DNA from: Pseudomonadota bacterium
GTDB lineage: Bacteria; Pseudomonadota; Gammaproteobacteria; JAKAQQ01
Length of the DNA stretch: 60,265 bases
Assembly (NCBI GenBank): GCA_021828045.1
Contig: JAKATI010000003.1
Location: forward strand, 1-60,265
Direction of reading: 5' to 3'
Each line of letters opens with the position of its first letter. The first letter of the stretch is position 1. Below, piece by piece: positions 8,162-30,646 of the stretch. Below the pieces are notes generated by a model. It was not told the DNA's origin. It worked only from the letters and a program-made list of their open reading frames with translations, and made no database searches. A program made the position numbers and the translations under genes.

Positions 8162-9018
8162 TCAGACCGGGTTCGGTAATCTTGGGCAACAGCCTGCGCC
8201 AGCTTTCGGATCCTCAGCACATATCGTTGGCGTTCTCCAACGGAGATGGCACGTCGCGCATCAAGAAGGTTGAAGAGATGCGAAGCCTCGATGACACGCT
8301 CGTAAGCCGGCCGAGGCAAACCGGTCGAGAGTAGTTCTTGAACCTCCCCCTCGATTTTTTGGAAACGGTGGGCCAGCTCAGATGGGTCGGCCTGCTCGAA
8401 GTTGTAATGAGACATCTCAATCTCGTTGTCGCGGAAGAGATCGCCATAACGGAAAATCCGGCCCTCAGTCCCAGCTCCCCAAGGAAGGCCGTACATTTCG
8501 TCCGTCTGAGACAGCGACATCAGGAGACGTTCGAGCCCGTATGTGATTTCCCCCATCACAGGCTCGCAGCTAAAGCCGCCCATCTGCTGGAAATAGGTGA
8601 ACTGTGCAACCTCCATGCCATTCAGCCAGACTTCCCAGCCAAGCCCCCAAGCGCCCAGAGTCGGAGACTCCCAATTGTCCTCGACAAAACGGATCTCGTC
8701 CACACGCCGGTTGATGCCAATGGCTTCCAAGGAAGCCAGGAACTGGTCTTGGAAATGATCAGGTACAGGCTTCTGGACCACTTGGTATTGGAAATAATGC
8801 TGTCCCCGGTTGGGATTTTCCCCGTAGCGCCCGTCTTGAGGTCGGCGGCAAGGTTGGAGGAAGGCTGCTGCCCAAGGTCTTGAGTCAAGTGCTCTTAAAA
8901 AGGTAGCCGGATGGAAGGTGGCGGCTCCCATCGGCAGGTCGAGGGGAGGAAGCCAGAGGCAGCCCTCTGCCGTCCAGAACCGGTTGAGGGTAAAAACCAC
9001 GTTTTGGAAGTCAGTCAT
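8158..9018 (-). CDS. glyQ: Glycine--tRNA ligase alpha subunit
   Basis: The tracked ORF (to 9138) is over-extended. The ATG at 9018 gives [20 protein letters not shown]..., the conserved GlyQ N terminus, for 286 aa. Confidence 0.95.
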
Positions 9019-9074
9019 GCACCGGTCCGAGGCTAGGCGGTGCAAAGTATACCCTGATCCAGTCTGGGTTCTTC

Positions 9075-9091
9075 TGCACCGATCCGGTGCG
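9075..9091. promoter_or_regulatory. Candidate NtrC enhancer site (TGCACC-N5-GGTGCG)
   Basis: A near-perfect dyad matching the NtrC consensus TGCACC-N5-GGTGCA, about 65 nt upstream of the sigma54 element. Extra half-sites are TGCACC at 9018-9023 and GGTGCA at 9039-9044. Confidence 0.5.
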
Positions 9092-9153
9092 GATTTAGCG
9101 GTTTCAGGTCGAGGACCACGAGCCCGAGTCGGGCCCACTCATGGAGGTTGGGC

Positions 9154-9169
9154 TGGCATGGAATTTGCA
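9154..9169 (+). promoter_or_regulatory. sigma54 (-24/-12) promoter of glnA
   Basis: TGGCATggaatTTGCA, with GG (9155-9156) and GC (9167-9168) spaced as in the consensus TGGCAC-N5-TTGCA. It lies about 40 nt upstream of the glnA ATG at 9209. Confidence 0.65.
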
Positions 9170-9208
9170 CTGATAGAGGCAACCCCCCCGATGCCCGAGG
9201 TACCTGAT

Positions 9209-10618
9209 ATGCAATCCCATGAGGTCTTAGATTGGCTGGCTCAGAAACAGGTGCGCTACGTTGACCTTCGCTTCACGGATACCCGCGGGAAGGAACAGCA
9301 CGTCACCCTTCCGATTACTGCTGTCAGTGAGTCGCTTTTCGCGGAGGGCAAGATGTTTGATGGTTCCTCGATCGTAGGCTGGCGGGGAATCCAAGACTCC
9401 GACATGATCCTTATGCCCGAACTAGGCAGCCTCGTCCTTGATCCCTTCCGAAGTGAGGTTACCGCGCTCCTGCGCGCCGATGTCTACGATCCGGCAAGCC
9501 AAAAACCTTATGTCCGTGATCCCCGCTCGCTTGCGAAGCGGGCCGAGAACTATCTACGGTCAACTGGTATTGCGGATTCGCTCTTGGTGGGACCCGAGAA
9601 CGAATTTTTCATTTTTGACAGTGCGCGCTGGGATCACCGACTGAACGGGGCGTTTTATGAAATTGACTCTTGGGAGGGGTCATGGAATTCGGGGACCCAA
9701 AGGGAGGGGGGGAACCCGGGTCACCGTCCCGTGGCGAAGGGGGGGTACTTTCCCGTTCCTCCCGTGGATTCCCTACAGGATCTACGCTCTGAAATTTGCA
9801 CCACACTCACGGAACTCGGTCTCAGGGTCGAAGTTCACCATCATGAAGTTGCGACTGCGGGCCAGTGCGAGATCGGAGTGGGTTTCGATCATCTGGTTCG
9901 CAAGGCCGACGAGGTCCAGCTTCTCAAGTATGTGGTGCAAAACGTGGCAGCCCGCCACCAGAAAACAGCAACCTTTATGCCAAAACCATTGGTTGGCGAC
10001 AACGGGAACGGTATGCATGTTCATACTTCACTCGTCAAGGGTACGGAAAATCTCTTTGCGGGCAAGGGTTATGGCGGGCTGTCGGATCTGGCGCTCTTCT
10101 TCATCGGTGGCGTTATCCATCATGCCCGTGCTTTAAACGCGCTGACCAATCCCTCGACGAATAGTTACCGCAGGCTTGTGCCCGGTTTCGAGGCTCCCGT
10201 CAAGCTGGCTTATTCGGCCCGCAACCGATCCGCCGCAATCCGTGTTCCGTTCACACAAAGTCCCAAAGGCCGCCGTATCGAAATCCGCTTTCCAGACAGT
10301 ACCGCCAACCCGTACCTGGCCTTTTCGGCCTTACTCATGGCGGGAATTGACGGTATCCAGAAAAAAATGCACCCTGGAGAACCGAGGGATGTGGACCTGT
10401 ATGAATTGACACCCGAGGAAGACCGGAAAATTCCGCAGGTCGCGTATTCGCTCGAATCCGCTTTGGAGGCCTTGTCTGCAGACAGGGGATTTCTGATTGC
10501 GGGAGGGGTTTTTACTGACGATCTCTTGGATGCCTATGTCCAGATCAAGGAGCACGAACTGGCTGCTGTCCGTACGTGTGTCCATCCGGTTGAGTTCGAA
10601 CTCTACTATTCACTTTGA
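9209..10618 (+). CDS. glnA: Glutamine synthetase type I
   Basis: The tracked ORF (from 8918) is over-extended across the promoter region. The ATG at 9209 gives [35 protein letters not shown], colinear with enterobacterial GlnA, for 469 aa. An adenylylation-loop-like NLYELTPEE-type region ([11 protein letters not shown]) is present. Confidence 0.97.
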
Positions 10619-12871: not shown

Positions 12872-13936
12872 GTGGATGAGTCAGGGTCCCTAAACCGACA
12901 GCCATCAGATACGACCAGCCTTCTGGATGGCTTGGCCACGGCGGTTATTCGCGTCAATTCCAACCTTGTTCTCCTCTATGCCAACGCGGCGGCAACTGAC
13001 CTGTTCGAGTTGCCCCAATCCGCAGTGGGCCGGCCCTTGGCCGATATGGTAACTGCCTTTGCGCCCTTGATCCCCCTCCTGCCCGGCCAGCTTGCTGTCG
13101 GTGAGATCCGGAGCTATCGTGAGCTTGAGCTTGCGGTGGGCGGAAGGACGGTTACGCTTGACTGCATTGTCTCTCCTTTTCCACCTTCGGAACTCATTCT
13201 CGAACTCTATCCCCTGGATCGCCATCTACTGATCAGCCGCGAGGATGCCCTGACTCAGCGTTATCAGGCAGGTCGTGCTCTTCTCCTCCAGCTGGCCCAT
13301 GAGATCCGCAACCCGTTGGGCGGGGTTCGAGGTGCAGCACAACTGCTTGAGGCAGAGCTTGAGGATCCATCGCTTCGTGACTATACGCGGATCATCCGAA
13401 ATGAGGTTGACCGGCTCGGTGGACTGGTCGAAACGCTCCTGGGACCTCTGACACCGCCGAGGCGTTCTCCGCTCAATATCCATGAGTCCACCGAGCATGT
13501 CTTGCACATGATCGAGACGGAGCGGGTGCCGCGATTGCGGCTGGCTCGTGATTATGACCCCAGTCTGCCCGAACTGTTCCTGGATCGTGATCTTTTGGTC
13601 CAAGCCCTCCTCAACCTGGTCCGTAACGCCCGGGAAGCCATGCAGGATAGCGGAACAATCCGGATCCGGACCCGGATCGAACGACAGTACACAATCCAGG
13701 GACGACGTCACCCACTGGCCATACGTCTGGATGTCGAAGACGAGGGGCCCGGAGTGCCGCCTGAGCTCGGCGAGCGGTTGTTTCTTCCCTTGGTGAGTGG
13801 TCGTCCGGGGGGAACCGGGCTCGGATTGGCGATTGCCCAGGATCTCATCCAGCGGCAGGGAGGACTCATCGAATGGAAGAGCCGGCCCGGGGAGACCGTT
13901 TTCTCGGTCCTCTTGCCCATCGAAGGAAGCCCGTGA
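12872..13936 (+). CDS. ntrB: Nitrogen regulation sensor histidine kinase NtrB/NR(II)
   Basis: 354 aa with an N-terminal PAS-like region (LLDGLATAVIRVNSNLVLLYANAAATDLF), the H box HEIRNPLGG, and N/G boxes (LLNLVRNAREA, GTGLGLAIA). Confidence 0.9.
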   Translation: MDESGSLNRQPSDTTSLLDGLATAVIRVNSNLVLLYANAAATDLFELPQSAVGRPLADMVTAFAPLIPLLPGQLAVGEIRSYRELELAVGGRTVTLDCIVSPFPPSELILELYPLDRHLLISREDALTQRYQAGRALLLQLAHEIRNPLGGVRGAAQLLEAELEDPSLRDYTRIIRNEVDRLGGLVETLLGPLTPPRRSPLNIHESTEHVLHMIETERVPRLRLARDYDPSLPELFLDRDLLVQALLNLVRNAREAMQDSGTIRIRTRIERQYTIQGRRHPLAIRLDVEDEGPGVPPELGERLFLPLVSGRPGGTGLGLAIAQDLIQRQGGLIEWKSRPGETVFSVLLPIEGSP

Positions 13937-15309
13937 CTGCTCGCAGCTGGATCTGGGTCGTGGATGACGATGCCTCGACGCGTTGGGTCTTCGAAAAAGC
14001 CCTCGCGAAGTCAGGCTACGACGTGAAGGGATTCCCCCGTCTCAACGAGTGTGAGGAAGCTCTGAAGCATGGGGAGCCCTCAGCGCTGATTCTGGATATC
14101 CGTCTACCGGACGGCGATGGGCTGGATTTCCTGTCCTTCTGGTCCAAGCGATTCCCACGGCGCCCGGTTATCGTCGTGACTGCCCATGCAGATTTTCAGA
14201 ACGCAATCCAGGCCTATGAGAATGGAGCCTTCGAATACCTGCCGAAACCAGTCGATTTGCGTGAACTCATCGCTGTTCTCGAACGTGGGCTCTCACACCC
14301 GGGTCCGGATGAGAAAAGCCGAAAACACGGACCGTCGTCGTTGCTGATCGGCGCGGCACCCGCCATGCAGAGGGTTTTCCGCCAAATCGGCCGGTTGGCC
14401 AGAAGCGATGTCACGGTTCTCATCAGCGGGGAATCCGGGACAGGAAAGGAACTTGTCGCTCGCGCGCTCCATGCCCACGGCCCCCGGACGAAAGGACCAT
14501 TTATTGCCATCAATGCAGCGGCGATTCCAGCGGAACTCCTTGAAACCGAGCTATTTGGACATGAACGAGGGGCTTTCACGGGTGCCGTCACGGGGCGTGC
14601 CGGCCGTTTCGAACAGGCCCAGGGGGGGACCCTTTTTCTCGACGAGATAGGTGACATGCCCCTGTCGCTTCAAACTCGTCTCCTTCGGGTCATTGCCGAA
14701 CATGAATTTTTCCGGGTCGGCGGCGAGAAAACCGTGGCGACGGACGCTCGACTGGTTGCGGCGACTCACCAGGATCTTGCGACCTTGGTGCAAGCGGGCC
14801 GTTTCCGTGAAGATCTTTACCACCGGCTCAATGTGGTTGAAATCCGCCTTCCTCCTCTGCGGAAGCGGCTTGACGATCTACCTCTTCTCCTTGAGCACTT
14901 CCTTCGGGAGGCAAGTGCCGAGTTCGGGCTCCCCCCTCCTCGGCTCACTGCTGAAGCCGTGGATGAACTGAAGCACTGGCCCTGGCGCGGAAACATCCGG
15001 GAACTCGTCAACTTCTGCCGGAAAATCGTGCTGGAGCCCCCGGGTCCATTCGTACAAGTTCGAGATCTTGAAAGTTTCCGTTCGGATTCACACTCCGGGA
15101 ACATGCAGGAGTGGTGTGAAGTCTTGGGCCAGTGGTGCCATACCGCTTCTCCGGCTGACTATGCCCAGGCACTTGAGAAGGCGGAACGGATTCTCATTGA
15201 GGTTGCTTTGGAACGTACGGGAGGCCATCGCCAGGAGGCAGCACGACTCTTGGGAATGGGACGAAACACCTTGACAAGGAAACGTGCCCGATGGAAGGAA
15301 AACCAGTGA
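13933..15309 (+). CDS. ntrC: Nitrogen regulation response regulator NtrC (sigma54 activator)
   Basis: The GTG at 13933 overlaps the ntrB stop (GTGA), so the tracked start at 13873 lies inside ntrB. Contains a receiver domain (WVVDDDASTRW...DIRLPDGDG), an AAA+ domain (GESGTGKE, GAFTGA) and a C-terminal HTH (AARLLGMGRNTLTRK). Confidence 0.93.
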   Translation: MTARSWIWVVDDDASTRWVFEKALAKSGYDVKGFPRLNECEEALKHGEPSALILDIRLPDGDGLDFLSFWSKRFPRRPVIVVTAHADFQNAIQAYENGAFEYLPKPVDLRELIAVLERGLSHPGPDEKSRKHGPSSLLIGAAPAMQRVFRQIGRLARSDVTVLISGESGTGKELVARALHAHGPRTKGPFIAINAAAIPAELLETELFGHERGAFTGAVTGRAGRFEQAQGGTLFLDEIGDMPLSLQTRLLRVIAEHEFFRVGGEKTVATDARLVAATHQDLATLVQAGRFREDLYHRLNVVEIRLPPLRKRLDDLPLLLEHFLREASAEFGLPPPRLTAEAVDELKHWPWRGNIRELVNFCRKIVLEPPGPFVQVRDLESFRSDSHSGNMQEWCEVLGQWCHTASPADYAQALEKAERILIEVALERTGGHRQEAARLLGMGRNTLTRKRARWKENQ

Positions 15310-16101: not shown

Positions 16102-19100
16102 TTAGTAAATCTCGGTCCAGTAAATCTCGTCAGGGTTTGCCCGGTAAATTCCAAAATTGAGCGTACCGGAGGGAGGCTGGTTGTCCTGCCCCGTGCCGTT
16201 CCAGTCATACTCGAGCCAGCTCGGAATTGTTGCGGTAGTGAGAATAAGGGCGCCTGTCACATTGGGGGCCTTGAACCAAAGATTGAAATTGCCACCTTGA
16301 GGCGGCTCACTGAAGTCCTCACCCGTTTTACTGCTGCCACACGATAACCCACTCTGATTCCCTGTTTCCCACACACAGGTGTCTGACGGGGTCACAGGTC
16401 CACCCGGCGTGGGTTCCGAGAGGGCAAGGGTGACACCCGTCGTACAGCTGTCCTCGGTGGCTGGAACCCATCCCGTCGAGGAGCCAAGATAGTATTCCGT
16501 TGTCATGGGATCGTTCAGGTCCAGTTCCTCGGAGCCATAGGCATTGGGAATCACCAGTCGGCCCTGGCGAATAGTTGAAGCGTCACCCGTTGCAAAACCG
16601 ATTGTGAAGGTGAATGGATTCTGGGGATAGGCGATTCCGTCTGTATCCGTAACCGGGAAACTGACGGTAATATCCGACTGGAAAGGGTTGGCTACGGGTG
16701 CGGGTTTTGTGCCATTATCCGGTTGGGTGTAGGACAAAGGGCCCGAGAAGGTGGTGGTTACCGATCCGGGTGCCGTATTTGTGGTGGTGGTGGGCGAATA
16801 ACCCGCAACCGTGCTGTCCACCGTGACGCCCAAAGTGGAGGGGGCATTGGGATCCGAGTAGCTGGGTGTGATCGCGGGAAGTTTCCACCAGTCGGCGCCG
16901 GTCCCAAAATTGGAATAATTCTGGGTTGTTGTACCCTGTGCATTGACCGCGGTAATTGTCACCACGGGGGGGGTGGCATAGTTGAGAGGTTGACCCAAGT
17001 AGGTGAAGTTTGCCCCACAGCTCGAATCGAAGCTTGGCGAATTCACGCTGACATCGAAATGGTCAGGGGTAAAACGACCCACATAACTGCTGTTGGGTAG
17101 GGATCCCGTGTAATAACTATAACCCGTTGCATCCACACCGGGAGTGTTGAGATAGTTGGTCGCGGTGGCCTCGAAAGTGACGCTACCCACTTCGCTATAT
17201 TCCAGGTCGTTTACGGTACCACTCCCTCCAGTGACGTCCAAGGAACCGTTGCTGATACTTCCCAGAACTCCTTGAGAGGGCAAAAAAGGTGAGACTGCCG
17301 ATACCGAGACGGGCCATGAGAAATGGGCGAGAACCAGATTGGCTGCATTGTCTACTGCAATCCCCGAACCAGTGGGGGCTGTGCAGTTGGGGGCATTGCA
17401 AGTATCCGTGGATGACCAGGCATAGGCAGTCACCACAGCCGTGAAATTCTTGCCGGCCGCCGTGAAAATGGGATCAGTCGGGGACTGCGAACCGGGATTC
17501 CCTTGCACGGTGATGAGAAGGTCGTATGGAATCACGGTCACTGGAAGGCTACCGCAGGTCTGGCCGTTCCCCATGCACCAATTCAGAAGGTACTTTCCGA
17601 CATCGGTCGTATCTAGCGTGAAGTCCGCCACGCCGTTTGTGAAAGCCAGATGGATGTTGAAGTGTCTGGGTTGACTGGTGGGAAGGGGGGATACGGTCTG
17701 TTGTGTATTCCCCGTCACGCCCGGTAACGCGGCACCGGGAGGCTGATCGGGGTCAAGCGTTAGCCATACAGTCATCTTCTGGTGTTTATTGTTTAATCCC
17801 GTATTGACATTGCAGCCGTTATAGCTGGTCACCGTCATGTTTTGGGGACGACCCGCGATCGGGATGGCGATCTCGCCGGGGGCATTGGCCACCACCAGCG
17901 AGCCTCCACGAAAGGTGATGGGTGATGAGGTGTTCGTGATGCCTGTACCAAAATCCTGAACCGTGACCGATACCGTTTCGGCCGTCGGATCGGACAGGTT
18001 GAGGACGATTTCACCACCATCCGCTGGGACAAACTGGTAGGTCCACTGGGGATAACCGGAAACAGGGTTGGGACCGATAAACGTGAGAGTGCCATTGGCC
18101 TGGTTGGGAGTGAGGTTGGCGTTCCCCGAGTTGGAACTCACGGTAATGATGATCCGTCCCGTGTAGCCCGGAATGACATTGCCGGCTGCATCTTCAGCAA
18201 CGATGGTGACCGGTACCGAGAGGGAGGCACAGGTGCTTCCCGAGGCAGGTGACGTGATACCGAAATGATCCAGCAGGCTCGGTTCAAAAAGGATTGCCGT
18301 ATCGTTGAGTGCTGCGAGATTGTTGGTATTTTGGATGTTGGTGATGTAGGGGTAGTTATAGTAGTTGCCAGTGGTATTGATCACCCAGCCAATGGCCGGC
18401 AAGTTTCCGTTGGTATCGAGGGGAGGGTCGCTTGTATTGTCCTGGTACTGGAATTCGAAGGTTCCGTTGGCATAGAGAATGGCTTGCACACTGAAGGCGG
18501 GTGGGGGGGGGTAGCCGGATTGAGGAACATTCAGCCAGGTGACCACAAAATACTGGAGGCCAGACGACGTCGTTCCGGTTCCATAAAAGACGCCACAGTT
18601 GGGGGCTGCACAAAGGGTATTTTCGGGGACGCCATTGTAAAGAGAGGGGTCCCCCGGATCAAAATCCACGCTATAAGGGATAATTGTTGTGGTCGGCGTA
18701 CTGATTGTATTGCCGGTTGTAGTGGGGATCTGGATAAAGGGCCCGCCGTACCCGCACGCACTGTTATTGAATTGAAGCCGGCCGTTGGCATCAACCTGCA
18801 CCTGGGTATAGGCGGTGCCCCCATAATCAAAAGTGAAGCCCAAGGGAATCTGCCAGGTGATGTCATCATCGGGAGTGGCTCCATCATAGGTGCCTGCCGT
18901 GCAGGCCTGGCCCGACGACCAGGAACCGCCTGTGGGCCCGGTGACGATGAGCGTTTGTCCCGCTGTACTGATCCAGCCGAAAGAGGTCGGAACTGCCGTG
19001 TAACTCACTGTCCCCTGCGCGCCGGTCATCCCAACGAGCATCAACAGGATAACGCCCGCCAGGATACGGCAACCTCCGACACGAGGAAATAAGTTGGAGA

Positions 19101-19122
19101 GATCAGAAAGCTTGCGGTGCAT
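16102..19122 (-). CDS. mshQ: MshQ-like large pilus-associated surface protein
   Basis: 1006 aa from the ATG at 19122. The tracked start at 19437 adds an Arg/Pro-rich read-through that overlaps mshP. Has an N-terminal signal/TM segment (CRILAGVILLMLVGMTGAQG) followed by a Thr/Ser/Gly/Asn-rich protein. It is the last gene after mshO-mshP, as in the Vibrio MSHA locus. The assignment rests on position and size. Confidence 0.6.
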   Translation of the reverse strand: MHRKLSDLSNLFPRVGGCRILAGVILLMLVGMTGAQGTVSYTAVPTSFGWISTAGQTLIVTGPTGGSWSSGQACTAGTYDGATPDDDITWQIPLGFTFDYGGTAYTQVQVDANGRLQFNNSACGYGGPFIQIPTTTGNTISTPTTTIIPYSVDFDPGDPSLYNGVPENTLCAAPNCGVFYGTGTTSSGLQYFVVTWLNVPQSGYPPPPAFSVQAILYANGTFEFQYQDNTSDPPLDTNGNLPAIGWVINTTGNYYNYPYITNIQNTNNLAALNDTAILFEPSLLDHFGITSPASGSTCASLSVPVTIVAEDAAGNVIPGYTGRIIITVSSNSGNANLTPNQANGTLTFIGPNPVSGYPQWTYQFVPADGGEIVLNLSDPTAETVSVTVQDFGTGITNTSSPITFRGGSLVVANAPGEIAIPIAGRPQNMTVTSYNGCNVNTGLNNKHQKMTVWLTLDPDQPPGAALPGVTGNTQQTVSPLPTSQPRHFNIHLAFTNGVADFTLDTTDVGKYLLNWCMGNGQTCGSLPVTVIPYDLLITVQGNPGSQSPTDPIFTAAGKNFTAVVTAYAWSSTDTCNAPNCTAPTGSGIAVDNAANLVLAHFSWPVSVSAVSPFLPSQGVLGSISNGSLDVTGGSGTVNDLEYSEVGSVTFEATATNYLNTPGVDATGYSYYTGSLPNSSYVGRFTPDHFDVSVNSPSFDSSCGANFTYLGQPLNYATPPVVTITAVNAQGTTTQNYSNFGTGADWWKLPAITPSYSDPNAPSTLGVTVDSTVAGYSPTTTTNTAPGSVTTTFSGPLSYTQPDNGTKPAPVANPFQSDITVSFPVTDTDGIAYPQNPFTFTIGFATGDASTIRQGRLVIPNAYGSEELDLNDPMTTEYYLGSSTGWVPATEDSCTTGVTLALSEPTPGGPVTPSDTCVWETGNQSGLSCGSSKTGEDFSEPPQGGNFNLWFKAPNVTGALILTTATIPSWLEYDWNGTGQDNQPPSGTLNFGIYRANPDEIYWTEIY

Positions 19123-19558
19123 CGGTAGCTGTGACCTGGATGGTGCGCTGGACAAAGTCGGGGGTCTGCCCAAACGTGCCGTTCGAGGCATCCGCCTGGA
19201 TGACATAGACGTTAAAGGTGGTGCCGTGCTCCGTATGGGCCGTGGAAGAACAGCTGACGGTGACGGAAAAGCCGGATAGCCCGTTGGCCGTGAACGGAAG
19301 AGTCGTGGTCGCGGGGCAGCTGTGGTTTGTGACCGCTTCGTAGGCACCCCAGCCGGCACCGCTTTGGGCGGCTGCAAACGCACGTGCCTCGAGCAGGACA
19401 AGTGTGGGAGCGGTCTGCCCCGCCCCGGAAATCTCAATCACGAGGGCAGCCAGGGCGCCCAGAACGACGATGATAAAGAGAGCAATCAGGATCGAAAATC
19501 CCGACTCGGAAGGGGTCTTCCGTGACACAAATTGCGGGCATGGATGTTCAGGGTGCAT
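19103..19558 (-). CDS. mshP: MshP-like minor pilin-like protein
   Basis: 151 aa with a pilin-like hydrophobic N terminus after a Gly (SESG/FSILIALFIIVVLGALAAL), but no Glu5. It sits between mshO and mshQ. Confidence 0.5.
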   Translation of the reverse strand: MHPEHPCPQFVSRKTPSESGFSILIALFIIVVLGALAALVIEISGAGQTAPTLVLLEARAFAAAQSGAGWGAYEAVTNHSCPATTTLPFTANGLSGFSVTVSCSSTAHTEHGTTFNVYVIQADASNGTFGQTPDFVQRTIQVTATDAPQAF

Positions 19559-21924: not shown

Positions 21925-21953
21925 ATTATAGGGAAGGGACGGGGTGGTGTCCA
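21925..21953 (-). promoter_or_regulatory. sigma70 promoter of the mshA structural operon
   Basis: The minus strand reads TGGACA-17 nt-TATAAT (-35 at 21953-21948, -10 at 21930-21925). It lies just downstream of the GNAT stop and about 100 nt upstream of the mshA ATG. Confidence 0.55.
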
Positions 21954-21972: not shown

Positions 21973-22518
21973 CTACCGTTCGCGAAGCCCGGAACTTCCG
22001 TGGGTGTTCGGGTGGGGGGCAAGATCCAGGCAGAAAATGAGCTGGTCGTCTCCCGGACGGTAAAAGTCGGGCAAACGGGCAATTTCCGTAAAGCCGCAGC
22101 GACGGTAGAACGAGTGGGTTGGCTGGTACAGGGGGCGGGCCGATGTTTCGACATAAAGCTTCCGGGCTGCTACCGAAGACTGCAGGCGGGTGAGAACCGT
22201 TGCGAGGAGATGTTTCCCAACTCCGTGGCCTTGGGCCTCCGGAGCCACCACGATCCAGTAAAGATCATGGCTACCCGTGGTTCCTGGGATGGGACCGTGG
22301 CACGCGTAACCGATCGGGAAGCCCCTTGGACGTTCTGCTACCTCGAAAAAGTAGCCGGAAATTTGCGCTCCCTGTGCCAGATGGGATTCCATGAGTTCTT
22401 GAGCCACTGCCACCTCGGGCTCGTCGAAATAACCGGTGGCACGGACGATATCGATGAGCGGCCGAATATCCGTTCGCTCAAGCGAAGGGCGAATCAGGGC
22501 AGAATCAGTCGCCGGCAT
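21973..22518 (-). CDS. GNAT-family N-acetyltransferase
   Basis: 181 aa from the ATG at 22518, since the tracked ORF (to 23010) runs out-of-frame across the preceding gene. Has the acetyl-CoA motif QGHGVGK and a conserved YRRCGF block. Overlaps the upstream ATP-grasp gene by 14 nt. Confidence 0.8.
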   Translation of the reverse strand: MPATDSALIRPSLERTDIRPLIDIVRATGYFDEPEVAVAQELMESHLAQGAQISGYFFEVAERPRGFPIGYACHGPIPGTTGSHDLYWIVVAPEAQGHGVGKHLLATVLTRLQSSVAARKLYVETSARPLYQPTHSFYRRCGFTEIARLPDFYRPGDDQLIFCLDLAPHPNTHGSSGLRER

Positions 22519-23515
22519 ACGCTCTCCCGGGTGGGGAAAACCCGAGACCCCGCTTTGCTGCTTGGTCGAGGATTCCCTCGATGAGATCCCGGTATCCAAT
22601 TCCCGCCACCCGTGCTGCCTGAGCAAAACCGGCTTCCGGATCAAGGGTGGGATTCGGGTTGAGGTCGATGATCCAAGGTTGCCCTTGGCGATCCACCCGA
22701 AAATCGATGCGGGCATATCCCGCGAGACCCAGACGCTCGAAAAGGCTCCTGGCGAGCTCGCAAAGGGTCTGGAGGATTGCACCGTCGGGGCCATCCCCCT
22801 TTGGGAAGACGCGCACCGTGCCGTGAGCCGCTGGGCTTTCTGGGTCCCATTTGGCCTCATAATCAACGATCTGGGGGCGGCCCTCTGGCCAGTTCCGAAA
22901 CGCGATCTCCGCGGGTGGCAGAAGCCGGATATGCCCCCCGACCGTCTCGAGCAGGGACAGGTTGAACTCGCGGCCTGGAATGAATGCCTCGGCAAAAAAT
23001 GGAGTGCCATAACGTCGGCTTTGGGTCTCGATCTGTTGAGTGGCTGCTGGCCATGAGGTCACCCGGGCGTCCGGGCCGAGACCCAGTGAAGCGTGCTGGA
23101 AACGGGCCTTGACGATGAACGTTGCCTCCGGATCTATGGGGCTGACCGGAGGTGTGGGCAGTCCCAAGGAACGGAGCTCGCGTTTGAGGGCCAGTTTGTC
23201 ATCAGCCAAGGCGATGACGGTGGTGGGATTGCCAGTGTACGGCAGGGAAAGACTTTCGAGTAGCGCCGGGATGGCACAGGCCAGCCGGTCCTGGCCATTC
23301 AGACTTTCAACGAGGTTGAAGACAAGATCGGGGGGAGACTTCAGAAGCTGGATTCGAAGCTTTTCGAGATCGAGATCAGCATGGGCGACCTCGCAGGACC
23401 AATCCGGGCCGGAAAGCAGCCCTGCCAAGTTATGGGCGACCCGCTCGGTCTCGGCTTCATCGGCAGTCGGGTTGGGCCCTTGGATTGCACCGTGGAGAAT
23501 GAGCAGGCGATGCAT
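22505..23515 (-). CDS. D-alanine--D-alanine ligase-like ATP-grasp enzyme (paralog 2)
   Basis: 336 aa. The N-terminal Ddl-type domain (DLVFNLVESLNGQDRLACAIPALLESLSLPYTG) is followed by an ATP-grasp fold (FIVKARFQHASLG, EAFIPGREFNLSLL, RIDFRVD...PWIIDLNPNP). Confidence 0.8.
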   Translation of the reverse strand: MHRLLILHGAIQGPNPTADEAETERVAHNLAGLLSGPDWSCEVAHADLDLEKLRIQLLKSPPDLVFNLVESLNGQDRLACAIPALLESLSLPYTGNPTTVIALADDKLALKRELRSLGLPTPPVSPIDPEATFIVKARFQHASLGLGPDARVTSWPAATQQIETQSRRYGTPFFAEAFIPGREFNLSLLETVGGHIRLLPPAEIAFRNWPEGRPQIVDYEAKWDPESPAAHGTVRVFPKGDGPDGAILQTLCELARSLFERLGLAGYARIDFRVDRQGQPWIIDLNPNPTLDPEAGFAQAARVAGIGYRDLIEGILDQAAKRGLGFSPPGRAYAGD

Positions 23516-23518
23516 GGG

Positions 23519-24517
23519 TTAGGGATGACCGGAAGCATCGGCCGCCGAGCGGGACAGGGCAGATTCCAGGATGGCTCCGATGAGCTTCGGATAGGACCAT
23601 CCTTGGGCCCGGGCCAGGATGACGAGGTCCGAACGCAGGGGATGCAGCCCTGCGAGCGGGTTGATTTCAAGGAAAAGAGGTTGGCTCTCCGCGTCGAGAC
23701 GAATGTCGACCCGGCTGGCATCGTCGCATTCGAGAAGTCGGTGGACGGACAGGGCCAGTTCAGCAACAGCAGGCTCCCGGCTGGTGGGGACAGGCCGGTA
23801 ATTGATGCGTATGTCGTATTCCTCCTTGGCCAGATACCCATAGGCCGCCTGGTCCTCCGGCGTTCTGGCGAGGATTTCAAGAATGCCCAGCACCCGGGCT
23901 CTCTGACCGCTGCCGAGGATGCCGACCGTGAACTCGCGGCCCGGAAGGTAGGGCTCGATCAGGAGAGGGCCCGAAAAGCGTGTCCGGAGCAACCGGATCC
24001 GTTGCTCGAGCCCGGCTTGGTCATCGACCCGGGAACCTGAGTCGATTCCCATTCCGGACCCCTCAGCGGCCGGTTTCACAAAGCGTGGGTAGTCGAGCGG
24101 AGGGATAGTCTCGGCTGGTTCACCACTCTTCAGGACGAAAAACGGGGCTGTCGGCAGCCCGGCGTCCCGTACGATGTGCTTGGCATGCCCCTTGTGGAGA
24201 GCCAGAGCCAGGGTGAGGGGTCCGGAAAAGGTGTAGGGGATCCCGTAGGCATCAAGCAAGGCCGGTACTTGTGACTCGCGGGCGGATCCCCGAAGGCCTT
24301 CCGCAATGTTGAACACGAGGTCGTATCGCTCACCACGAGCCAAAGCTTCCACCAAGGTGGGGAGCGATCCGACCGCAACCGGTTCGTGCCCGAAGTCCTT
24401 CAGGGCCTGACCGATGGCGGCCGGAGTTTCCGGACGATCAAACTCGGCGGTCTCCTCCTCGGTTAACCCGGCCGAGAGGTAAGACTCCCTGAGGTCATAG
24501 GTCAATCCGATGCGCAT
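23519..24517 (-). CDS. D-alanine--D-alanine ligase-like ATP-grasp enzyme (paralog 1)
   Basis: 332 aa beginning MRIGLTYDLRESYL. Blocks are DLVFNIAEGLRGSARESQVPALLDAYGIPYTFSG, FVKPAAEGSGMGI, EPYLPGREFTVGILG and RVDIRLD...PLFLEINPLAG. Confidence 0.8.
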   Translation of the reverse strand: MRIGLTYDLRESYLSAGLTEEETAEFDRPETPAAIGQALKDFGHEPVAVGSLPTLVEALARGERYDLVFNIAEGLRGSARESQVPALLDAYGIPYTFSGPLTLALALHKGHAKHIVRDAGLPTAPFFVLKSGEPAETIPPLDYPRFVKPAAEGSGMGIDSGSRVDDQAGLEQRIRLLRTRFSGPLLIEPYLPGREFTVGILGSGQRARVLGILEILARTPEDQAAYGYLAKEEYDIRINYRPVPTSREPAVAELALSVHRLLECDDASRVDIRLDAESQPLFLEINPLAGLHPLRSDLVILARAQGWSYPKLIGAILESALSRSAADASGHP

Positions 24518-25854
24518 GGAGCCGGCCCGGGCTCACCCTCGGGATCCGGGTAACGGTACGTTCCTCCAGCGTAGTTTCGAAGGAGCAGGTCATCCCCATT
24601 GCGCCCAATGACGGGATCCGGGAAGAGAGGGATCTTGCCGCCGCCACCGGGTGCGTCAATGACGTAAGTCGGAACGGCGTACCCTGTGGTGTGGCCCCGG
24701 AGTCCTTGAATGATTTCAAGCCCCTTGGCAACCGTTGTCCGGAAGTGTGCGGACCCCGAGATCGGATCGCACTGATAGAGGTAGTAGGGCTTCACGCGGA
24801 TGCGAAGGAGCCCTTGCATGAGCCGCTTCTGGGTCTCGATATTGTCGTTCACCCCCTTGAGCAGTACCGTCTGGCTGCCAAGTGGGATCCCGGCATCCGC
24901 CAGTCGTCCACATGCCTCAGCCACTTCCGGAGTCAGTTCGTCTGGGTGGATGAAGTGGATGCTCATCCAGAGAGGGTGGTATTTCTTGAGCAGGCGGGTC
25001 AGGCGGGGGGTGATACGTTGCGGGAGGACGGCGGGATTTTTTGTTCCAATGCGAAGGAATTCGACATGGGGGATTCTTCGCAGTCGGCCAAGTAGCCAGT
25101 CCAGCCGCTCATCATCAAGGCTCAGAGGATCTCCACCCGACAAGAGTACGTCCCGGATGCTGGGGGTGGACTCGATATAGGCCAGAGCCGCCTCCAGCTG
25201 ATGCTTCTTGAGGCTCCCCTCTCCGCTTGCGCCCACGAGGCGCGCCCGGGTGCAATAGCGGCAATAGACAGCACACAAGCCGGTCACGAGGAAGAGGACC
25301 CGGTCCGGATAGCGGTGGACCAGCCCCGGAACGGGACTGGTCGCATCCTCGCCCAACGGATCCTGGGCTTCACCAGGGGTGGCCTGGTATTCGGCGAGAA
25401 CCGGGATGACGGTCCGCCGCAACGCTTGGGTACTCTCGTCGGGATCGAGAAGGGAGGCATAGTAGGGGGTAATGCCGAACGGCAAGGATCCGACATGGCG
25501 TTCGATGGCAGCCCGTTCCTCGGCGGAGAGGCGGAGGATTCGGTCGAGGTCCGTCGTGGTCTTGATCCGGTGCCGTTGCTGCCAGCGCCAGTCGTTCCAG
25601 TCGCTTTTCGGGGTTGCGGGATAGAAACGTTCGCGAAAGCGTTCGGACCGCTCGCTGGTTACGAAACGGGGTCGGTAGGTTTTGGTAGCGGGGCGACGGG
25701 GTGGGGCGGTAGCGGGCTGGTGCGGAAGGATCGGGGAGAAGGGGATCCGGACTTCGTAGGGGGTATCAAAGGCGAGACCGGAGGCGGAGGAGGACGCTTG
25801 GACTGGAAGTGGTCCGGGAGGTTCGGCGTCTTCAGGAAGCGGGCTGTCTTGCAT
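24502..25854 (-). CDS. kamA: Lysine 2,3-aminomutase (KamA-family radical SAM/PLP enzyme) with a Pro-rich N-terminal extension
   Basis: 450 aa from the ATG at 25854, with a GGAG 7 nt upstream. It is colinear with clostridial and Bacillus KamA: WNDWRWQ, ITPYYASL, DPLGEDATSPVPGLVHRYPDRVLFLVT, the radical SAM motif CAVYCRYC, and DVLLSGGDPL, PYYLYQCD, VIDAPGGGGK. The tracked start at 26013 is a read-through. Confidence 0.9.
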   Translation of the reverse strand: MQDSPLPEDAEPPGPLPVQASSSASGLAFDTPYEVRIPFSPILPHQPATAPPRRPATKTYRPRFVTSERSERFRERFYPATPKSDWNDWRWQQRHRIKTTTDLDRILRLSAEERAAIERHVGSLPFGITPYYASLLDPDESTQALRRTVIPVLAEYQATPGEAQDPLGEDATSPVPGLVHRYPDRVLFLVTGLCAVYCRYCTRARLVGASGEGSLKKHQLEAALAYIESTPSIRDVLLSGGDPLSLDDERLDWLLGRLRRIPHVEFLRIGTKNPAVLPQRITPRLTRLLKKYHPLWMSIHFIHPDELTPEVAEACGRLADAGIPLGSQTVLLKGVNDNIETQKRLMQGLLRIRVKPYYLYQCDPISGSAHFRTTVAKGLEIIQGLRGHTTGYAVPTYVIDAPGGGGKIPLFPDPVIGRNGDDLLLRNYAGGTYRYPDPEGEPGPAPCASD

Positions 25855-25944
25855 CGTATGGCTCCAGTGGGATTGCTTGGGCAAGCGCTTGGCCCCGGGC
25901 ACATCCGGGGTGGTGATGGCCGACGGGACAGTCGGCGCGCATGG

Positions 25945-27855: not shown

Positions 27856-29592
27856 TCAGGGCAGGCTTCCCTGAAGCGGGTTGACTTCGCCGAAGAGGCG
27901 CAGGACTTCGCTCAGGCTGGTCAGGCCGTCTTCGGCGTAACCCAGGGCGCGGCGGACGAGGCTCACGTAACCATCCTGGTGGCGGGCTGTTTGGGCAATG
28001 TCCGAGGACACCTCGCGCCTCAGGGCGTCGGCCAGCGGGATATCGATCTCGAGCAGTTCGAATACGCCAATCCGGCCCCGGAAACCACTGTTATTGCAGA
28101 ACGGGCAGCCTCGTCCTCTCCGCCACTCGTGGGTACTCTCGGAAAGCCCCTGTGAACCCAGCCAGGCTGTTTCCTGTGGGGTGGGCTTATGGATCTCGGT
28201 GCAGTCGGTGCAGAGTCGGCGGATCAGGCGCTGGGAAATCACGGCATTCAGGGTGGCTGCAATGAGGTAACCGCGGGCGCCCATGTTGAGTAGTCGGTCC
28301 AACCCCGTGGGCGCGTCATTGGTATGCAGTGTGGACAAGACAAGATGCCCCATGAGGGCGGCCCGGAGCGCCACCTCCATGGTTTCTTGGTCGCGAATCT
28401 CGCCCACCATGATGACATCGGGGTCCTGTCGCAGCGTGGTTCTCAGGATCCGGGCAAAATCGAGTCCGATCCGCGGGTTGACCTGGATCTGGCTGATTCG
28501 GGGTAATCGATACTCGACGGGATCCTCGACCGTGATGATTTTGACGGCTGGGTGATTGATTGCGTTCAGGATCGAATACAGGGTCGTTGACTTGCCACCA
28601 CCGGTTGGTCCCGTGACGAGTAACATGCCAGTCGGTCGTGCGATCAGTACCTGCAGGCGCGGGAGAAGGTCGGCGGGAAGCCCCAGCTGGTCGAGACTGA
28701 TGAGATCGTGAGCCGGGTCAAGCAGTCGCATGACAACACTTTCGCCGTAGGAAGTGGGCAAGGTGGCGAGTCGGATATCGAGAGTCCGGTCCTTGACCTT
28801 GAGGCTGAAGCGCCCGTCCTGCGGCAACCGGCGCTCCGAGATATCGAGCCCGGCCATGAGTTTGAGACGAGTGATGATGGCCTGACTCACCCGCCGGCCT
28901 TCAACCAGCTGTTCATGGAGAATGCCGTCGATCCGCTGTCGAACCCGGAGCTGGTTTTCCTCCGGTTCGAGATGGATATCGGAGGTACGGGCCTGGACGG
29001 CATCCTCGAACAGGGATTTCAAAAGCCGGACGACCGGCTGATCTCCCAGCATTTCGCTTTGTCCGAGCTGCTCGATGTCGAAATTGCTGCCTTCCCTGAG
29101 CTCGGCCCCGATTTCCTCCGCAAGGAGCGAAATCTCTTCCGTGCGGCGGTAGACGACATCAATGGCACGGATGAGGTCCCCTTCCGGGACAAGGCTCAAC
29201 TGCAGCGGTTTTTTGAGGATCCGTGAGAGTTCGTCATAGGCGAAGATGTCGGTCGGATCGACCATACCGATGAGCAGATGGTCCGAGCGGTCCTCGAGTA
29301 CGATGGCCCGATAGCGCCGGGCATAGCTTTCCGGAAGCAGGCGGACGGTCTCGGGCTGGAAACGGTACCGCTTGAGGTCGACGAGCGGGATCCGGAGTTG
29401 GCGTGAAAGGAAGTCAAGCAGGATCTCTTCGTTGATGAAGCCGAGCTCGATCAAGATCCGCCCTAGCTTGTGGCCGGTTTTCTTCTGTTCGAGAAGGGCC
29501 GTTTTCAGTGCATTTTCCGAAATGATTTTTTCGCGCATCAGGAGATCGCCGATGCGGATTCGTTCTGGTGGTTTAGCGAGTGGGCGGTTCAT
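27856..29592 (-). CDS. mshE: Type IV pilus assembly ATPase (GspE/PilB family) with an MshEN-type N-terminal domain, MshE
   Basis: 578 aa from the ATG at 29592; the tracked start at 29787 lies inside mshN. Has Walker A VTGPTGGGKSTT, Asp/His boxes, the tetracysteine motif CTDC...CPFC, and tandem 24-residue MshEN-like motifs at the N terminus. Confidence 0.92.
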   Translation of the reverse strand: MNRPLAKPPERIRIGDLLMREKIISENALKTALLEQKKTGHKLGRILIELGFINEEILLDFLSRQLRIPLVDLKRYRFQPETVRLLPESYARRYRAIVLEDRSDHLLIGMVDPTDIFAYDELSRILKKPLQLSLVPEGDLIRAIDVVYRRTEEISLLAEEIGAELREGSNFDIEQLGQSEMLGDQPVVRLLKSLFEDAVQARTSDIHLEPEENQLRVRQRIDGILHEQLVEGRRVSQAIITRLKLMAGLDISERRLPQDGRFSLKVKDRTLDIRLATLPTSYGESVVMRLLDPAHDLISLDQLGLPADLLPRLQVLIARPTGMLLVTGPTGGGKSTTLYSILNAINHPAVKIITVEDPVEYRLPRISQIQVNPRIGLDFARILRTTLRQDPDVIMVGEIRDQETMEVALRAALMGHLVLSTLHTNDAPTGLDRLLNMGARGYLIAATLNAVISQRLIRRLCTDCTEIHKPTPQETAWLGSQGLSESTHEWRRGRGCPFCNNSGFRGRIGVFELLEIDIPLADALRREVSSDIAQTARHQDGYVSLVRRALGYAEDGLTSLSEVLRLFGEVNPLQGSLP

Positions 29593-30646
29593 GAGTCGGG
29601 AGGGGTTTTTCGAGAAATCTGATTCTACGCTCGAGATAGAGGGTGAGTGTGGGCGGAAGCCCGCCCAGAGCGAGGGCCCGCTGGTCGGCTGTGAGAGCGG
29701 AGCGGTTCCGTCCCGACTGTTCCAGGGCAATCCCCCGGCCGGCCCAGGCCCAGGCAGCAAGGGGATGTTTTGCGATGACTTCATCATAAAGGTGCGCGGC
29801 GATGGGCCAGTGGCCGGTCAACTGGGCCAGGGCAGCGGCCAGTTTGAGGTAATGCAAATGGGCGATCGGGTGGGTTGGGGAATGGCGCCGGATTTCGTGC
29901 CAGGCGAGGGCCGTATTGCCGGTCCGGGCCAGCAGGTTGATTTGCGCGTCAAGGGCAGTGCGGCTGATCCCGGGGAGATGGATCCCTGTCAAAAGGAGCG
30001 CCTGGGCTGCCGGGAGGTCTCCGAGTCGTATGTCGAGCCCCGCCAAAGCCAGACGGATGGCAGAGTTCCGCGGTTCGAGGGACAGTGCCTTCCGGAAGCG
30101 GCGGATGGCATGGTGTTCATGCCCGTGATTCAGGTCGCGCCGGGCTTCGAGAAGGTCCAGTTGCATTGCCTCGGACGGTGTGGCGGGAGGGGCGGAATGG
30201 ATGTCCAGGGATTGGGCGATGGACACGGGCGGAGGAGGATGAAAAGCGGCCCGGGCTTGAGGTTTTGTTTGGGCAGACTGGGATAAGGGCCGCCGGGGGT
30301 GGCTTCCAATCGCAGGGGATTGTGGCAGGGGTTGGGCGATTGCGGCACTTGGGGGGGGGCGGCCGCCGAAAGCACGGGTTTGGTGGGCCTGGGTTCCGGC
30401 ACGGATCGTTGTGCCAGCGGGTCGGGGGAGGGGACGGGTTGAGTGGGTGTTTCCTCCCCAGGTCAGGAGAAACCAGCTCGTGCCGAGTGCAAGAAGGACA
30501 AAGAGGATACTGGAGAGAATTGCCGCAGGCCGGTGTGGTCGGATGTGAGTCTTGGATTCCGGAACGACCTGAATGCCAGAGAGTGCTCCCGGTGCCCGGG
30601 GTTCCCGTTTGGCCAGGTCCCGGAGAACGTCATTGATGAGACTCAT
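29573..30646 (-). CDS. mshN: MshN-like TPR protein
   Basis: 357 aa with the N terminus MSLINDVLRDLAKRE followed by a TM segment, a Pro/Ala-rich linker and a C-terminal TPR-like region. It sits between mshM and mshE. Confidence 0.6.
   Translation of the reverse strand: MSLINDVLRDLAKREPRAPGALSGIQVVPESKTHIRPHRPAAILSSILFVLLALGTSWFLLTWGGNTHSTRPLPRPAGTTIRAGTQAHQTRAFGGRPPPSAAIAQPLPQSPAIGSHPRRPLSQSAQTKPQARAAFHPPPPVSIAQSLDIHSAPPATPSEAMQLDLLEARRDLNHGHEHHAIRRFRKALSLEPRNSAIRLALAGLDIRLGDLPAAQALLLTGIHLPGISRTALDAQINLLARTGNTALAWHEIRRHSPTHPIAHLHYLKLAAALAQLTGHWPIAAHLYDEVIAKHPLAAWAWAGRGIALEQSGRNRSALTADQRALALGGLPPTLTLYLERRIRFLEKPLPTHEPPTR

Follow-up and report, generated by a model that had tools for sequence, protein, structure and literature searches.

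A widespread four-gene operon joins a lysine 2,3-aminomutase to two Ddl-like ATP-grasp ligases and a GNAT acetyltransferase: a predicted beta-lysine ligation pathway

Few fates of beta-lysine are known in the cell: the osmolyte N-epsilon-acetyl-beta-lysine, modification of elongation factor P (EF-P), lysine fermentation and some antibiotics. Synthesis of the osmolyte is encoded by ablA/ablB in methanogens and by kamA-yodP in Bacillus subtilis. Acetyltransferases of the GNAT family meet ATP-grasp ligases in other settings: the GNAT/ATP-grasp protein Ngg, of the Ngg/AsnO pathway, leads to N-acetylglutaminylglutamine amide, NAT8L together with RIMKLA/B gives N-acetylaspartylglutamate, and microviridin-type clusters hold two ATP-grasp ligases and a GNAT. 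Here we describe four genes on the minus strand of a gammaproteobacterial contig (JAKATI010000003.1; the whole 60,265-nt stretch is referred to as the window, and positions are numbered along it) that occupy 21973-25854 and encode a KamA-family lysine 2,3-aminomutase, two ligases of the D-alanine--D-alanine ligase (Ddl) fold – AG1 and AG2 – and a GNAT acetyltransferase. Our data are best explained if these genes constitute a cytoplasmic biosynthetic operon, complete in itself and widespread in bacteria; the broader claim, that the operon is dedicated to beta-lysine ligation and has nothing to do with either the pilus locus in which it lies or the Ddl of the cell wall, is much firmer than the particular product that we propose below. 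In the full-text literature covered, most subscription journals lying outside it, no paper was found that brings ATP-grasp or Ddl-like ligases into one pathway with KamA or beta-lysine; within that coverage the statement of an earlier, first-pass annotation of the window, that no characterised pathway has this gene composition, stands.

The likenesses to described systems are partial. With ablAB and kamA-yodP the locus shares a KamA-type aminomutase with all lysine-binding residues and a GNAT in the same operon, but two ATP-grasp ligases stand between them and are the most conserved partners, the GNAT resembles the protein of PDB entry 2R7H, and KamA carries an extension with an EExEPP[S/G] motif and is without the last ~55 residues of the AblA model. 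We agree with the first-pass annotation that two ligases are dispensable for the known KamA plus GNAT route to N-epsilon-acetyl-beta-lysine. With Ngg and NAT8L + RIMKLA/B the locus shares the coupling of a GNAT with an ATP-grasp ligase, sometimes in one polypeptide (fused here in 16 of 123 loci). The ligases, however, belong to the Ddl clade, whereas Ngg belongs to the RimK/cyanophycin-synthetase clade; the order is ligase then GNAT, whereas the GNAT of Ngg is N-terminal; and here a beta-amino acid comes from a dedicated aminomutase, with no linked amidotransferase. The similarity to Ngg is one of analogy, not of family membership. Microviridin-type clusters have the same gene-family composition, two ATP-grasp ligases and one GNAT, but the present ligases are of the Ddl type and KamA is built for free lysine; as for a precursor-peptide gene, no conserved small open reading frame (ORF) was found, the best candidate occurring in 8-9 Desulfobacterota loci only and having no Pfam match. 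EpmA/EpmB, the EF-P beta-lysylation system, likewise relies on a KamA-family aminomutase to provide beta-lysine for an ATP-dependent amide bond, but of the KamA-family models that of EpmB gives our protein the lowest score, efp is unlinked, and the ligase is an ATP-grasp enzyme rather than a paralogue of LysRS.

The chemistry of the first step is the easiest to predict. KamA passes the KamA-family model TIGR00238 (357.6 bits; cut-off 199.2) and finds its best equivalog in AblA (TIGR03820; 473.6 bits), remaining under the cut-off of 525.4 partly because the C-terminal ~55 positions of that model are absent, the match spanning positions 4-362 of 417. Lower scores were obtained with the models for the glutamate (418 bits) and arginine (389 bits) enzymes and for EpmB (250 bits; cut-off 369). 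KamA aligns with the clostridial lysine 2,3-aminomutase 2A5H at E = 4.8e-136: C125/C129/C132 align with CAVYCRYC, the CxxxCxxC motif of radical S-adenosylmethionine (radical-SAM) enzymes, and R134, D293, D330 and K337 are all conserved. K337 is the lysine that holds pyridoxal phosphate, R134 binds the carboxylate, and D293 and D330 bind the epsilon-amine of lysine. Glutamate 2,3-aminomutase has K and N in place of the two aspartates. Because both aspartates are present in KamA – and the model scores agree – its substrate should be L-lysine, which it is predicted to convert to beta-lysine; identification as a glutamate or arginine 2,3-aminomutase was rejected on the same two grounds.

The case that the four genes act together begins with their recurrence. 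A genome scan seeded with AG1 returned at least 348 relatives; among the best 80 loci the order KamA-AG1-AG2-GNAT occurs on one strand in 55, KamA-AG1-AG2 in 11, KamA-AG1 in eight, AG1-AG2-GNAT in five and AG1-AG2 in one, again on one strand, some of these incomplete arrangements being truncated contigs. A second scan, independent of the first and seeded with the sequence of 2R7H, found the full module in 19 of 33 loci. Judged by record titles, carriers span at least ten phyla and include Desulfobacterota, Bacteroidota, Planctomycetota, Alpha- and Gammaproteobacteria, Acidobacteriota, Nitrospinota, Myxococcota, Spirochaetota, WOR-3 and Krumholzibacteriota; among them are the cultured Inmirania thermothiophila (L120) and Desulfopila sp. 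IMCC35006 (L018), the latter with a version of five genes. Since the same gene order recurs in independently seeded loci and in many phyla, it is more than a chance arrangement. Clustering of flanking ORFs revealed no neighbour outside the four genes that is conserved in more than 12 of the 80 loci, which argues that the module is self-contained.

Within the module two sub-units can be discerned. KamA lies directly upstream of AG1 in 74 of the 80 AG1-seeded loci; the pair is found without the other two genes (L014, L043, L056, L071) and stays together where the order is permuted (L093, L115). AG2 and the GNAT make up the other sub-unit: the fused loci mentioned above come from several phyla, Pfam confirms the architecture – ligase then GNAT – in the proteins P0121, P0136, P0164 and P0229, and such fusions account for ~45 (~30%) of the top 150 representatives of the GNAT family.

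AG1 and AG2 are paralogues, as the first-pass annotation had it (31% identity, E = 4e-25; the same Pfam domain in both), and their only significant solved relatives are the Ddl/Van ligases, followed by an L-amino-acid ligase. The likeness to Ddl and VanA extends to the fold – an AlphaFold (AF2) model of AG1, with a mean confidence (pLDDT) of 92, superimposes on DdlB with a template-modelling (TM) score of 0.77-0.83 – and to a complete set of ATP/Mg catalytic residues. Alignment of 80 AG1 and 61 AG2 family members to Escherichia coli DdlB (the reference was checked to be identical to 1IOV) showed the ATP/Mg and acyl-phosphate residues K97, K144, E180, E187, K215, R255, D257, E270 and N272 to be kept in both families. 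The pocket differs: at the DdlB positions H63, Y216, S281 and L282 AG1 has E, E, S and D, and AG2 has E, W, A and G, residues that are invariant or nearly so within each family (in AG1, E63 and D282 are invariant and E216 mostly so), while at E15 the N-terminal alignment is ambiguous and the counterpart uncertain. The extra acidic residues of the AG1 pocket would fit a cationic diamino substrate such as beta-lysine. Both proteins score far under the Ddl cut-off of 243 bits (NF002378; 150.9 bits for AG1, 87.1 for AG2), and equivalog models score far lower still. In the 80 loci whose flanks were clustered the module has no mur or dcw genes linked to it, and the locus L105 encodes, besides an AG2-like protein, a canonical Ddl that shares 42% identity with DdlB and sits within the dcw cluster next to ftsQAZ. 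The first-pass annotation had allowed that the two might prove to be true cell-wall Ddl enzymes; we judge them instead to be active ligases of new specificity. All named AG1 homologues in public databases are annotated 'D-alanine--D-alanine ligase', a name that is almost certainly wrong for this family. Distant AG2-like genes (32-33% identity) also occur in the cultured myxobacteria Nannocystis exedens DSM 71 (L133) and N. punicea (L134).

The GNAT belongs to the family of PDB 2R7H (E = 8e-34), deposited as a 'putative D-alanine N-acetyltransferase of GNAT family', and the loci reached from the 2R7H sequence contain the four-gene module described here; the label appears to have been guessed from neighbouring 'Ddl' genes. 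The protein has the QGHGVGK motif and length read at first pass, and its Pfam matches confirm the assignment. It is not an enzyme of the AblB type, a point overlooked at first pass: no AblB-type model was among the profile matches of the GNAT, and matches outside the 2R7H family are weak (RimI-like, AAC(6')-like, spermidine acetyltransferase and nourseothricin acetyltransferase, the last with E = 0.018). The family comprises 1174 clusters at 50% identity (E <= 1e-10). In 20 of 123 loci a further protein of ~590 aa stands beside the module (for example L005:10451-12217), with a weak GNAT match and a strong domain of the histone deacetylase (HDAC) type; it is sometimes fused to the module GNAT (P0185, P0199).

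Gene content, gene order, conservation, intact catalytic residues and domain fusions are matters of observation; about the non-lysine substrates, the sequence of the reactions, the product and what it does for the cell we infer the following. KamA would convert L-lysine to beta-lysine, and AG1, with ATP, would form a first amide bond involving beta-lysine. AG2 and the GNAT, working as a unit, would then form a second amide bond and N-acetylate the compound. This acetyl group might stay on as a cap that neutralises charge, or it might protect one amine for a time and so decide which of them undergoes ligation; blocking an amine by acetylation ahead of amide ligation has been discussed (PMC2922099). 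In loci with the GNAT-HDAC-type deacetylase, that enzyme would take the acetyl group off or recycle it. We would expect the pathway to yield a small N-acetylated di- or tri-amide of beta-lysine, serving as a compatible solute or polyamine-like organic cation; we give this reading as a whole a probability of about one half. That there is some ATP-dependent ligation product of beta-lysine, as the first-pass annotation predicted, is probable because of the strict conservation across phyla, the AG2-GNAT fusions and the minimal KamA-AG1 pairs. A small-molecule product is consistent with the nearest solved relatives of the ligases – Ddl and the L-amino-acid ligase – which are small-molecule ligases, and the weak similarity of the GNAT to spermidine and nourseothricin acetyltransferases points the same way.

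Several observations weigh against this proposal. The non-lysine substrates are not deducible from sequence. If acetylation were the last, capping step, a fusion of deacetylase and acetyltransferase would look odd. The flanking-ORF clustering showed neither a transporter nor a regulator that is dedicated to the module and conserved with it. Most carrier genomes were recovered, by their record titles, from groundwater, peat, freshwater sediment and bioreactors, not from saline sites, which does not favour a role as an osmolyte. Finally, a simple pathway to a soluble metabolite does not account for the EExEPP[S/G] motif of KamA.

This motif deserves comment. The first 77 codons of KamA are rich in proline and hold no in-frame ATG, GTG or TTG, and the extension that they encode is missing from the clostridial enzyme, residue 9 of 2A5H pairing with residue 78 of KamA. 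The extension, together with its want of an alternative start and the GGAG that precedes the ATG, was correctly read at first pass; what was overlooked is its informative part, a short motif at the extreme N-terminus. Most module-linked KamA homologues carry an extension (median ORF 444 aa) of varying sequence and length, in which the consensus hydrophobic-x-E-[ED]-x-E-P-P-[SG] sits before a variable linker of 34-89 residues. Among 70 KamA homologues xPP is present in 58, EPP in 53 and a following S or G in 49; as a regular expression the motif was matched by 44 of 70 KamA ORFs versus 3 of 664 background ORFs, and across phyla EPP shows a column conservation above 70% in the alignment. It is retained in loci with KamA and AG1 only, and is degenerate in Rhizomicrobium-type loci. 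The motif could be a docking or carrier element, or a proline stall site dependent on EF-P. A link to EF-P through gene neighbourhood was considered and rejected, an efp-like gene occurring in only one of ~120 loci.

Among other explanations, an unlikely one holds that the chemistry is directed at a protein: the ligases would attach beta-lysine or a short chain of it to protein carboxylates, the GNAT and HDAC acetylating and deacetylating the bound amine, and the target would be either KamA's own acidic EExEPP tail – a tethered carrier, as LysW is with LysX – or another cellular protein. In its favour are the acidic motif, conserved at the end of a linker of variable length and kept in KamA-AG1-only loci, and the weak RimI-like similarity of the GNAT; the GNAT-HDAC pairing is reminiscent of protein acetylation switches such as AcuA/AcuC. 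Yet the known members of the Ddl clade, to which AG1 and AG2 belong, use free amino acids as substrates, no target gene is conserved beside the module (efp is linked in one of ~120 loci), and the motif is missing from Rhizomicrobium-type loci that nonetheless keep KamA-AG1. The more specific idea that the tail is a tethered carrier or docking arm, on which the Ddl-like ligases build or hand over beta-lysine intermediates, is a speculation that we hold to be somewhat less likely again; it would amount to the amino-group-carrier logic of LysW/LysX placed within an aminomutase, or to a new system of protein beta-lysylation. Improbable, in our estimation, is a secreted or cell-associated bioactive oligomer of beta-lysine resembling the streptothricin chain, with the GNAT for self-protection and the HDAC for activation. 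The nourseothricin acetyltransferase match, an acetylation/deacetylation pair suited to the logic of a pro-drug and the acidic AG1 pocket would all sit well with it, but no exporter, resistance or other tailoring gene is conserved, a compact housekeeping-like operon in at least ten phyla is not what it would lead one to expect, and for a homopolymer one ligase would suffice.

A role in the cell envelope, whether through a beta-lysine dipeptide for a peptidoglycan precursor or through genuine Ddl enzymes, has in its favour the Ddl fold of AG1 with its catalytic set intact and the database names of homologues; the sub-threshold scores, the replacement of H63, Y216 and L282, the coexistence on L105 of a canonical dcw-cluster Ddl with the AG2-like gene and the absence of linked mur/dcw genes make it quite improbable. 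Lower still do we rate the plain N-epsilon-acetyl-beta-lysine route, with KamA and the GNAT as the pathway and the ligases as unrelated passengers: although AblA is the best model for KamA and a GNAT is present, it is AG1 and not the GNAT that is the tightest partner of KamA (the eight KamA-AG1 and 11 KamA-AG1-AG2 loci have no detected GNAT), the GNAT is fused to AG2, not to KamA, and AblB-type models are wanting among its matches. Least probable of all is modification of the MshA pilin or of another surface component of the msh pilus, a link that the first-pass annotation had raised. It draws on the position of the module between a 180-aa gene and a pilin promoter, in the window and in three other loci (L001-L003); these loci are close relatives of the window (AG1 identity 66-91%), inspection of the other 110 loci showed no msh genes, and with the arrangement so limited the idea is unsupported. 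Moreover no secreted or membrane family is among the profile matches of the four proteins, no signal-peptide search having been made. The position inside the msh locus thus looks like incidental synteny, and the description of the module as occupying the slot of mshB is accurate locally but holds for one lineage only.

A number of genes accompany the module in parts of its range. A protein of ~170 aa with a CxxCxxCC domain (PF03692), putatively metal-binding, is encoded between KamA and AG1, mostly in Planctomycetota (L048:7217-7783, L058:2041-2565, L078:1667-2170, L087:7490-7960). Sigma54-type regulators lie upstream of the module in some Desulfobacterota, and an ORF of ~100 aa without a Pfam match, found just upstream of KamA at L007:6315-6617 and in eight other Desulfobacterota loci, often follows the gene for a sigma54-dependent NtrC-type regulator. 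In Nitrospinota and one 'Deltaproteobacteria' metagenome-assembled genome a pyruvoyl-dependent arginine decarboxylase directly precedes AG2-like and GNAT genes (L105:1544-3762, L114, L115:5450-9890, L106:4178-10408); the order in L115 is NadE-PvlArgDC-AG2-GNAT-KamA-AG1, and L106 has in addition an agmatinase, a deoxyhypusine-synthase-like gene and a third, RimK-like ATP-grasp. This linkage may point to agmatine or a polyamine as co-substrate, but the decarboxylases of the four loci are 73-99% identical, so that they probably represent one lineage or one transferred block and were set aside as evidence for a polyamine link. None of the four module proteins gave a PADLOC match that would place them in anti-phage defence.

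On the window itself the tight packing of the four genes was confirmed on re-reading (Table 1): KamA and AG1 overlap by 16 nt, AG1 and AG2 are separated by 3 nt, and AG2 and the GNAT overlap by 14 nt, the GNAT start being an internal ATG within a longer ORF. Pfam and NCBIfam concur in the assignments (LAM_C plus Radical_SAM, two Dala_Dala_lig_C, Acetyltransf_1). A sigma70-like promoter of the downstream pilin gene was found 20 nt past the GNAT stop, much where the first-pass annotation had placed it; it marks the boundary of the module and lies outside it. At the other side, hairpins do follow the 180-aa gene that had been called mshF, but their likeness to terminators is weak. The GC content of the module (0.59-0.64) is that of its flanks, and no notable direct or inverted repeats flank it that would mark an insertion. 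A promoter search at the module identified none for the four genes; a sigma54 candidate upstream of kamA, GGCCAAGCGCTTGC, was rejected, having four mismatches to TGGCAC-N5-TTGCW and so lying outside the set of matches with up to three.

Table 1. Features of the module and its borders, numbered along the window
Feature	Position	Strand	Basis
KamA-family lysine 2,3-aminomutase, 450 aa, ATG start	24502-25854	-	profiles and 2A5H alignment
AG1, Ddl-fold ATP-grasp carboxylate-amine ligase, 332 aa	23519-24517	-	PF07478
AG2, second paralogous Ddl-fold ATP-grasp ligase, 336 aa	22505-23515	-	PF07478
GNAT acetyltransferase, 181 aa, 2R7H family	21973-22518	-	PF00583, PF13508
N-terminal extension of KamA, aa 1-77, Pro-rich	25624-25854	-	absent from clostridial lysine 2,3-aminomutase
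KamA motif E-D-A-E-P-P-G, aa 8-14	25813-25833	-	family conservation
Shine-Dalgarno-like GGAG, 7 nt before kamA ATG at 25854	25862-25865	-	direct reading
Sigma70-like promoter of downstream pilin gene	21925-21953	-	TGGACA-17-TATAAT, 11/12 matches

The flanks form an MshE-type pilus locus, with an ATPase bearing an MshE domain, a GspF/PilC-like platform protein whose gene is followed by the 180-aa gene, five prepilin-like genes and a DUF6701 protein. The N-terminal domain of the ATPase (27856-29787, minus strand) is of the cyclic-di-GMP-binding MshE type (NF053729, 69 bits, cut-off 38), and the pilus is therefore probably controlled by cyclic di-GMP. At the end of the locus, in the position of MshQ, lies an ORF of 1111 aa (16102-19437, minus strand) whose sole match is to DUF6701, with none among the NCBIfam models; because the listed TTG start would place over 300 nt of it within the preceding gene, translation probably begins further downstream. 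Elsewhere in the window three near-consensus sigma54 promoter matches, with one mismatch each (9154-9169 on the plus strand; 8605-8620 and 9967-9982 on the minus strand), surround a glutamine synthetase gene (8918-10618), and genes for a histidine kinase and an NtrC-type regulator lie at 12872-15309; together these features resemble the classical arrangement of glnA-ntrBC, in which a glnAp2-like promoter is included.

The dedicated beta-lysine ligation operon that we propose would add another cellular fate of beta-lysine, in bacteria of ten or more phyla that are dominant in groundwater, in peat and in anoxic sediments. Its reach is considerable – AG1-like sequences form more than 8,000 clusters at 90% identity, a lower bound – and the naming of the AG1 family as Ddl could mislead surveys of cell-wall synthesis and vancomycin resistance. 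The identity of the product would give the 2R7H structure a function, define two new specificities in the Ddl clade, and could reveal a new compatible solute or polyamine surrogate. If the tail of KamA were indeed a carrier arm, it would represent a new way to channel the product of a radical-SAM enzyme into ATP-grasp chemistry.

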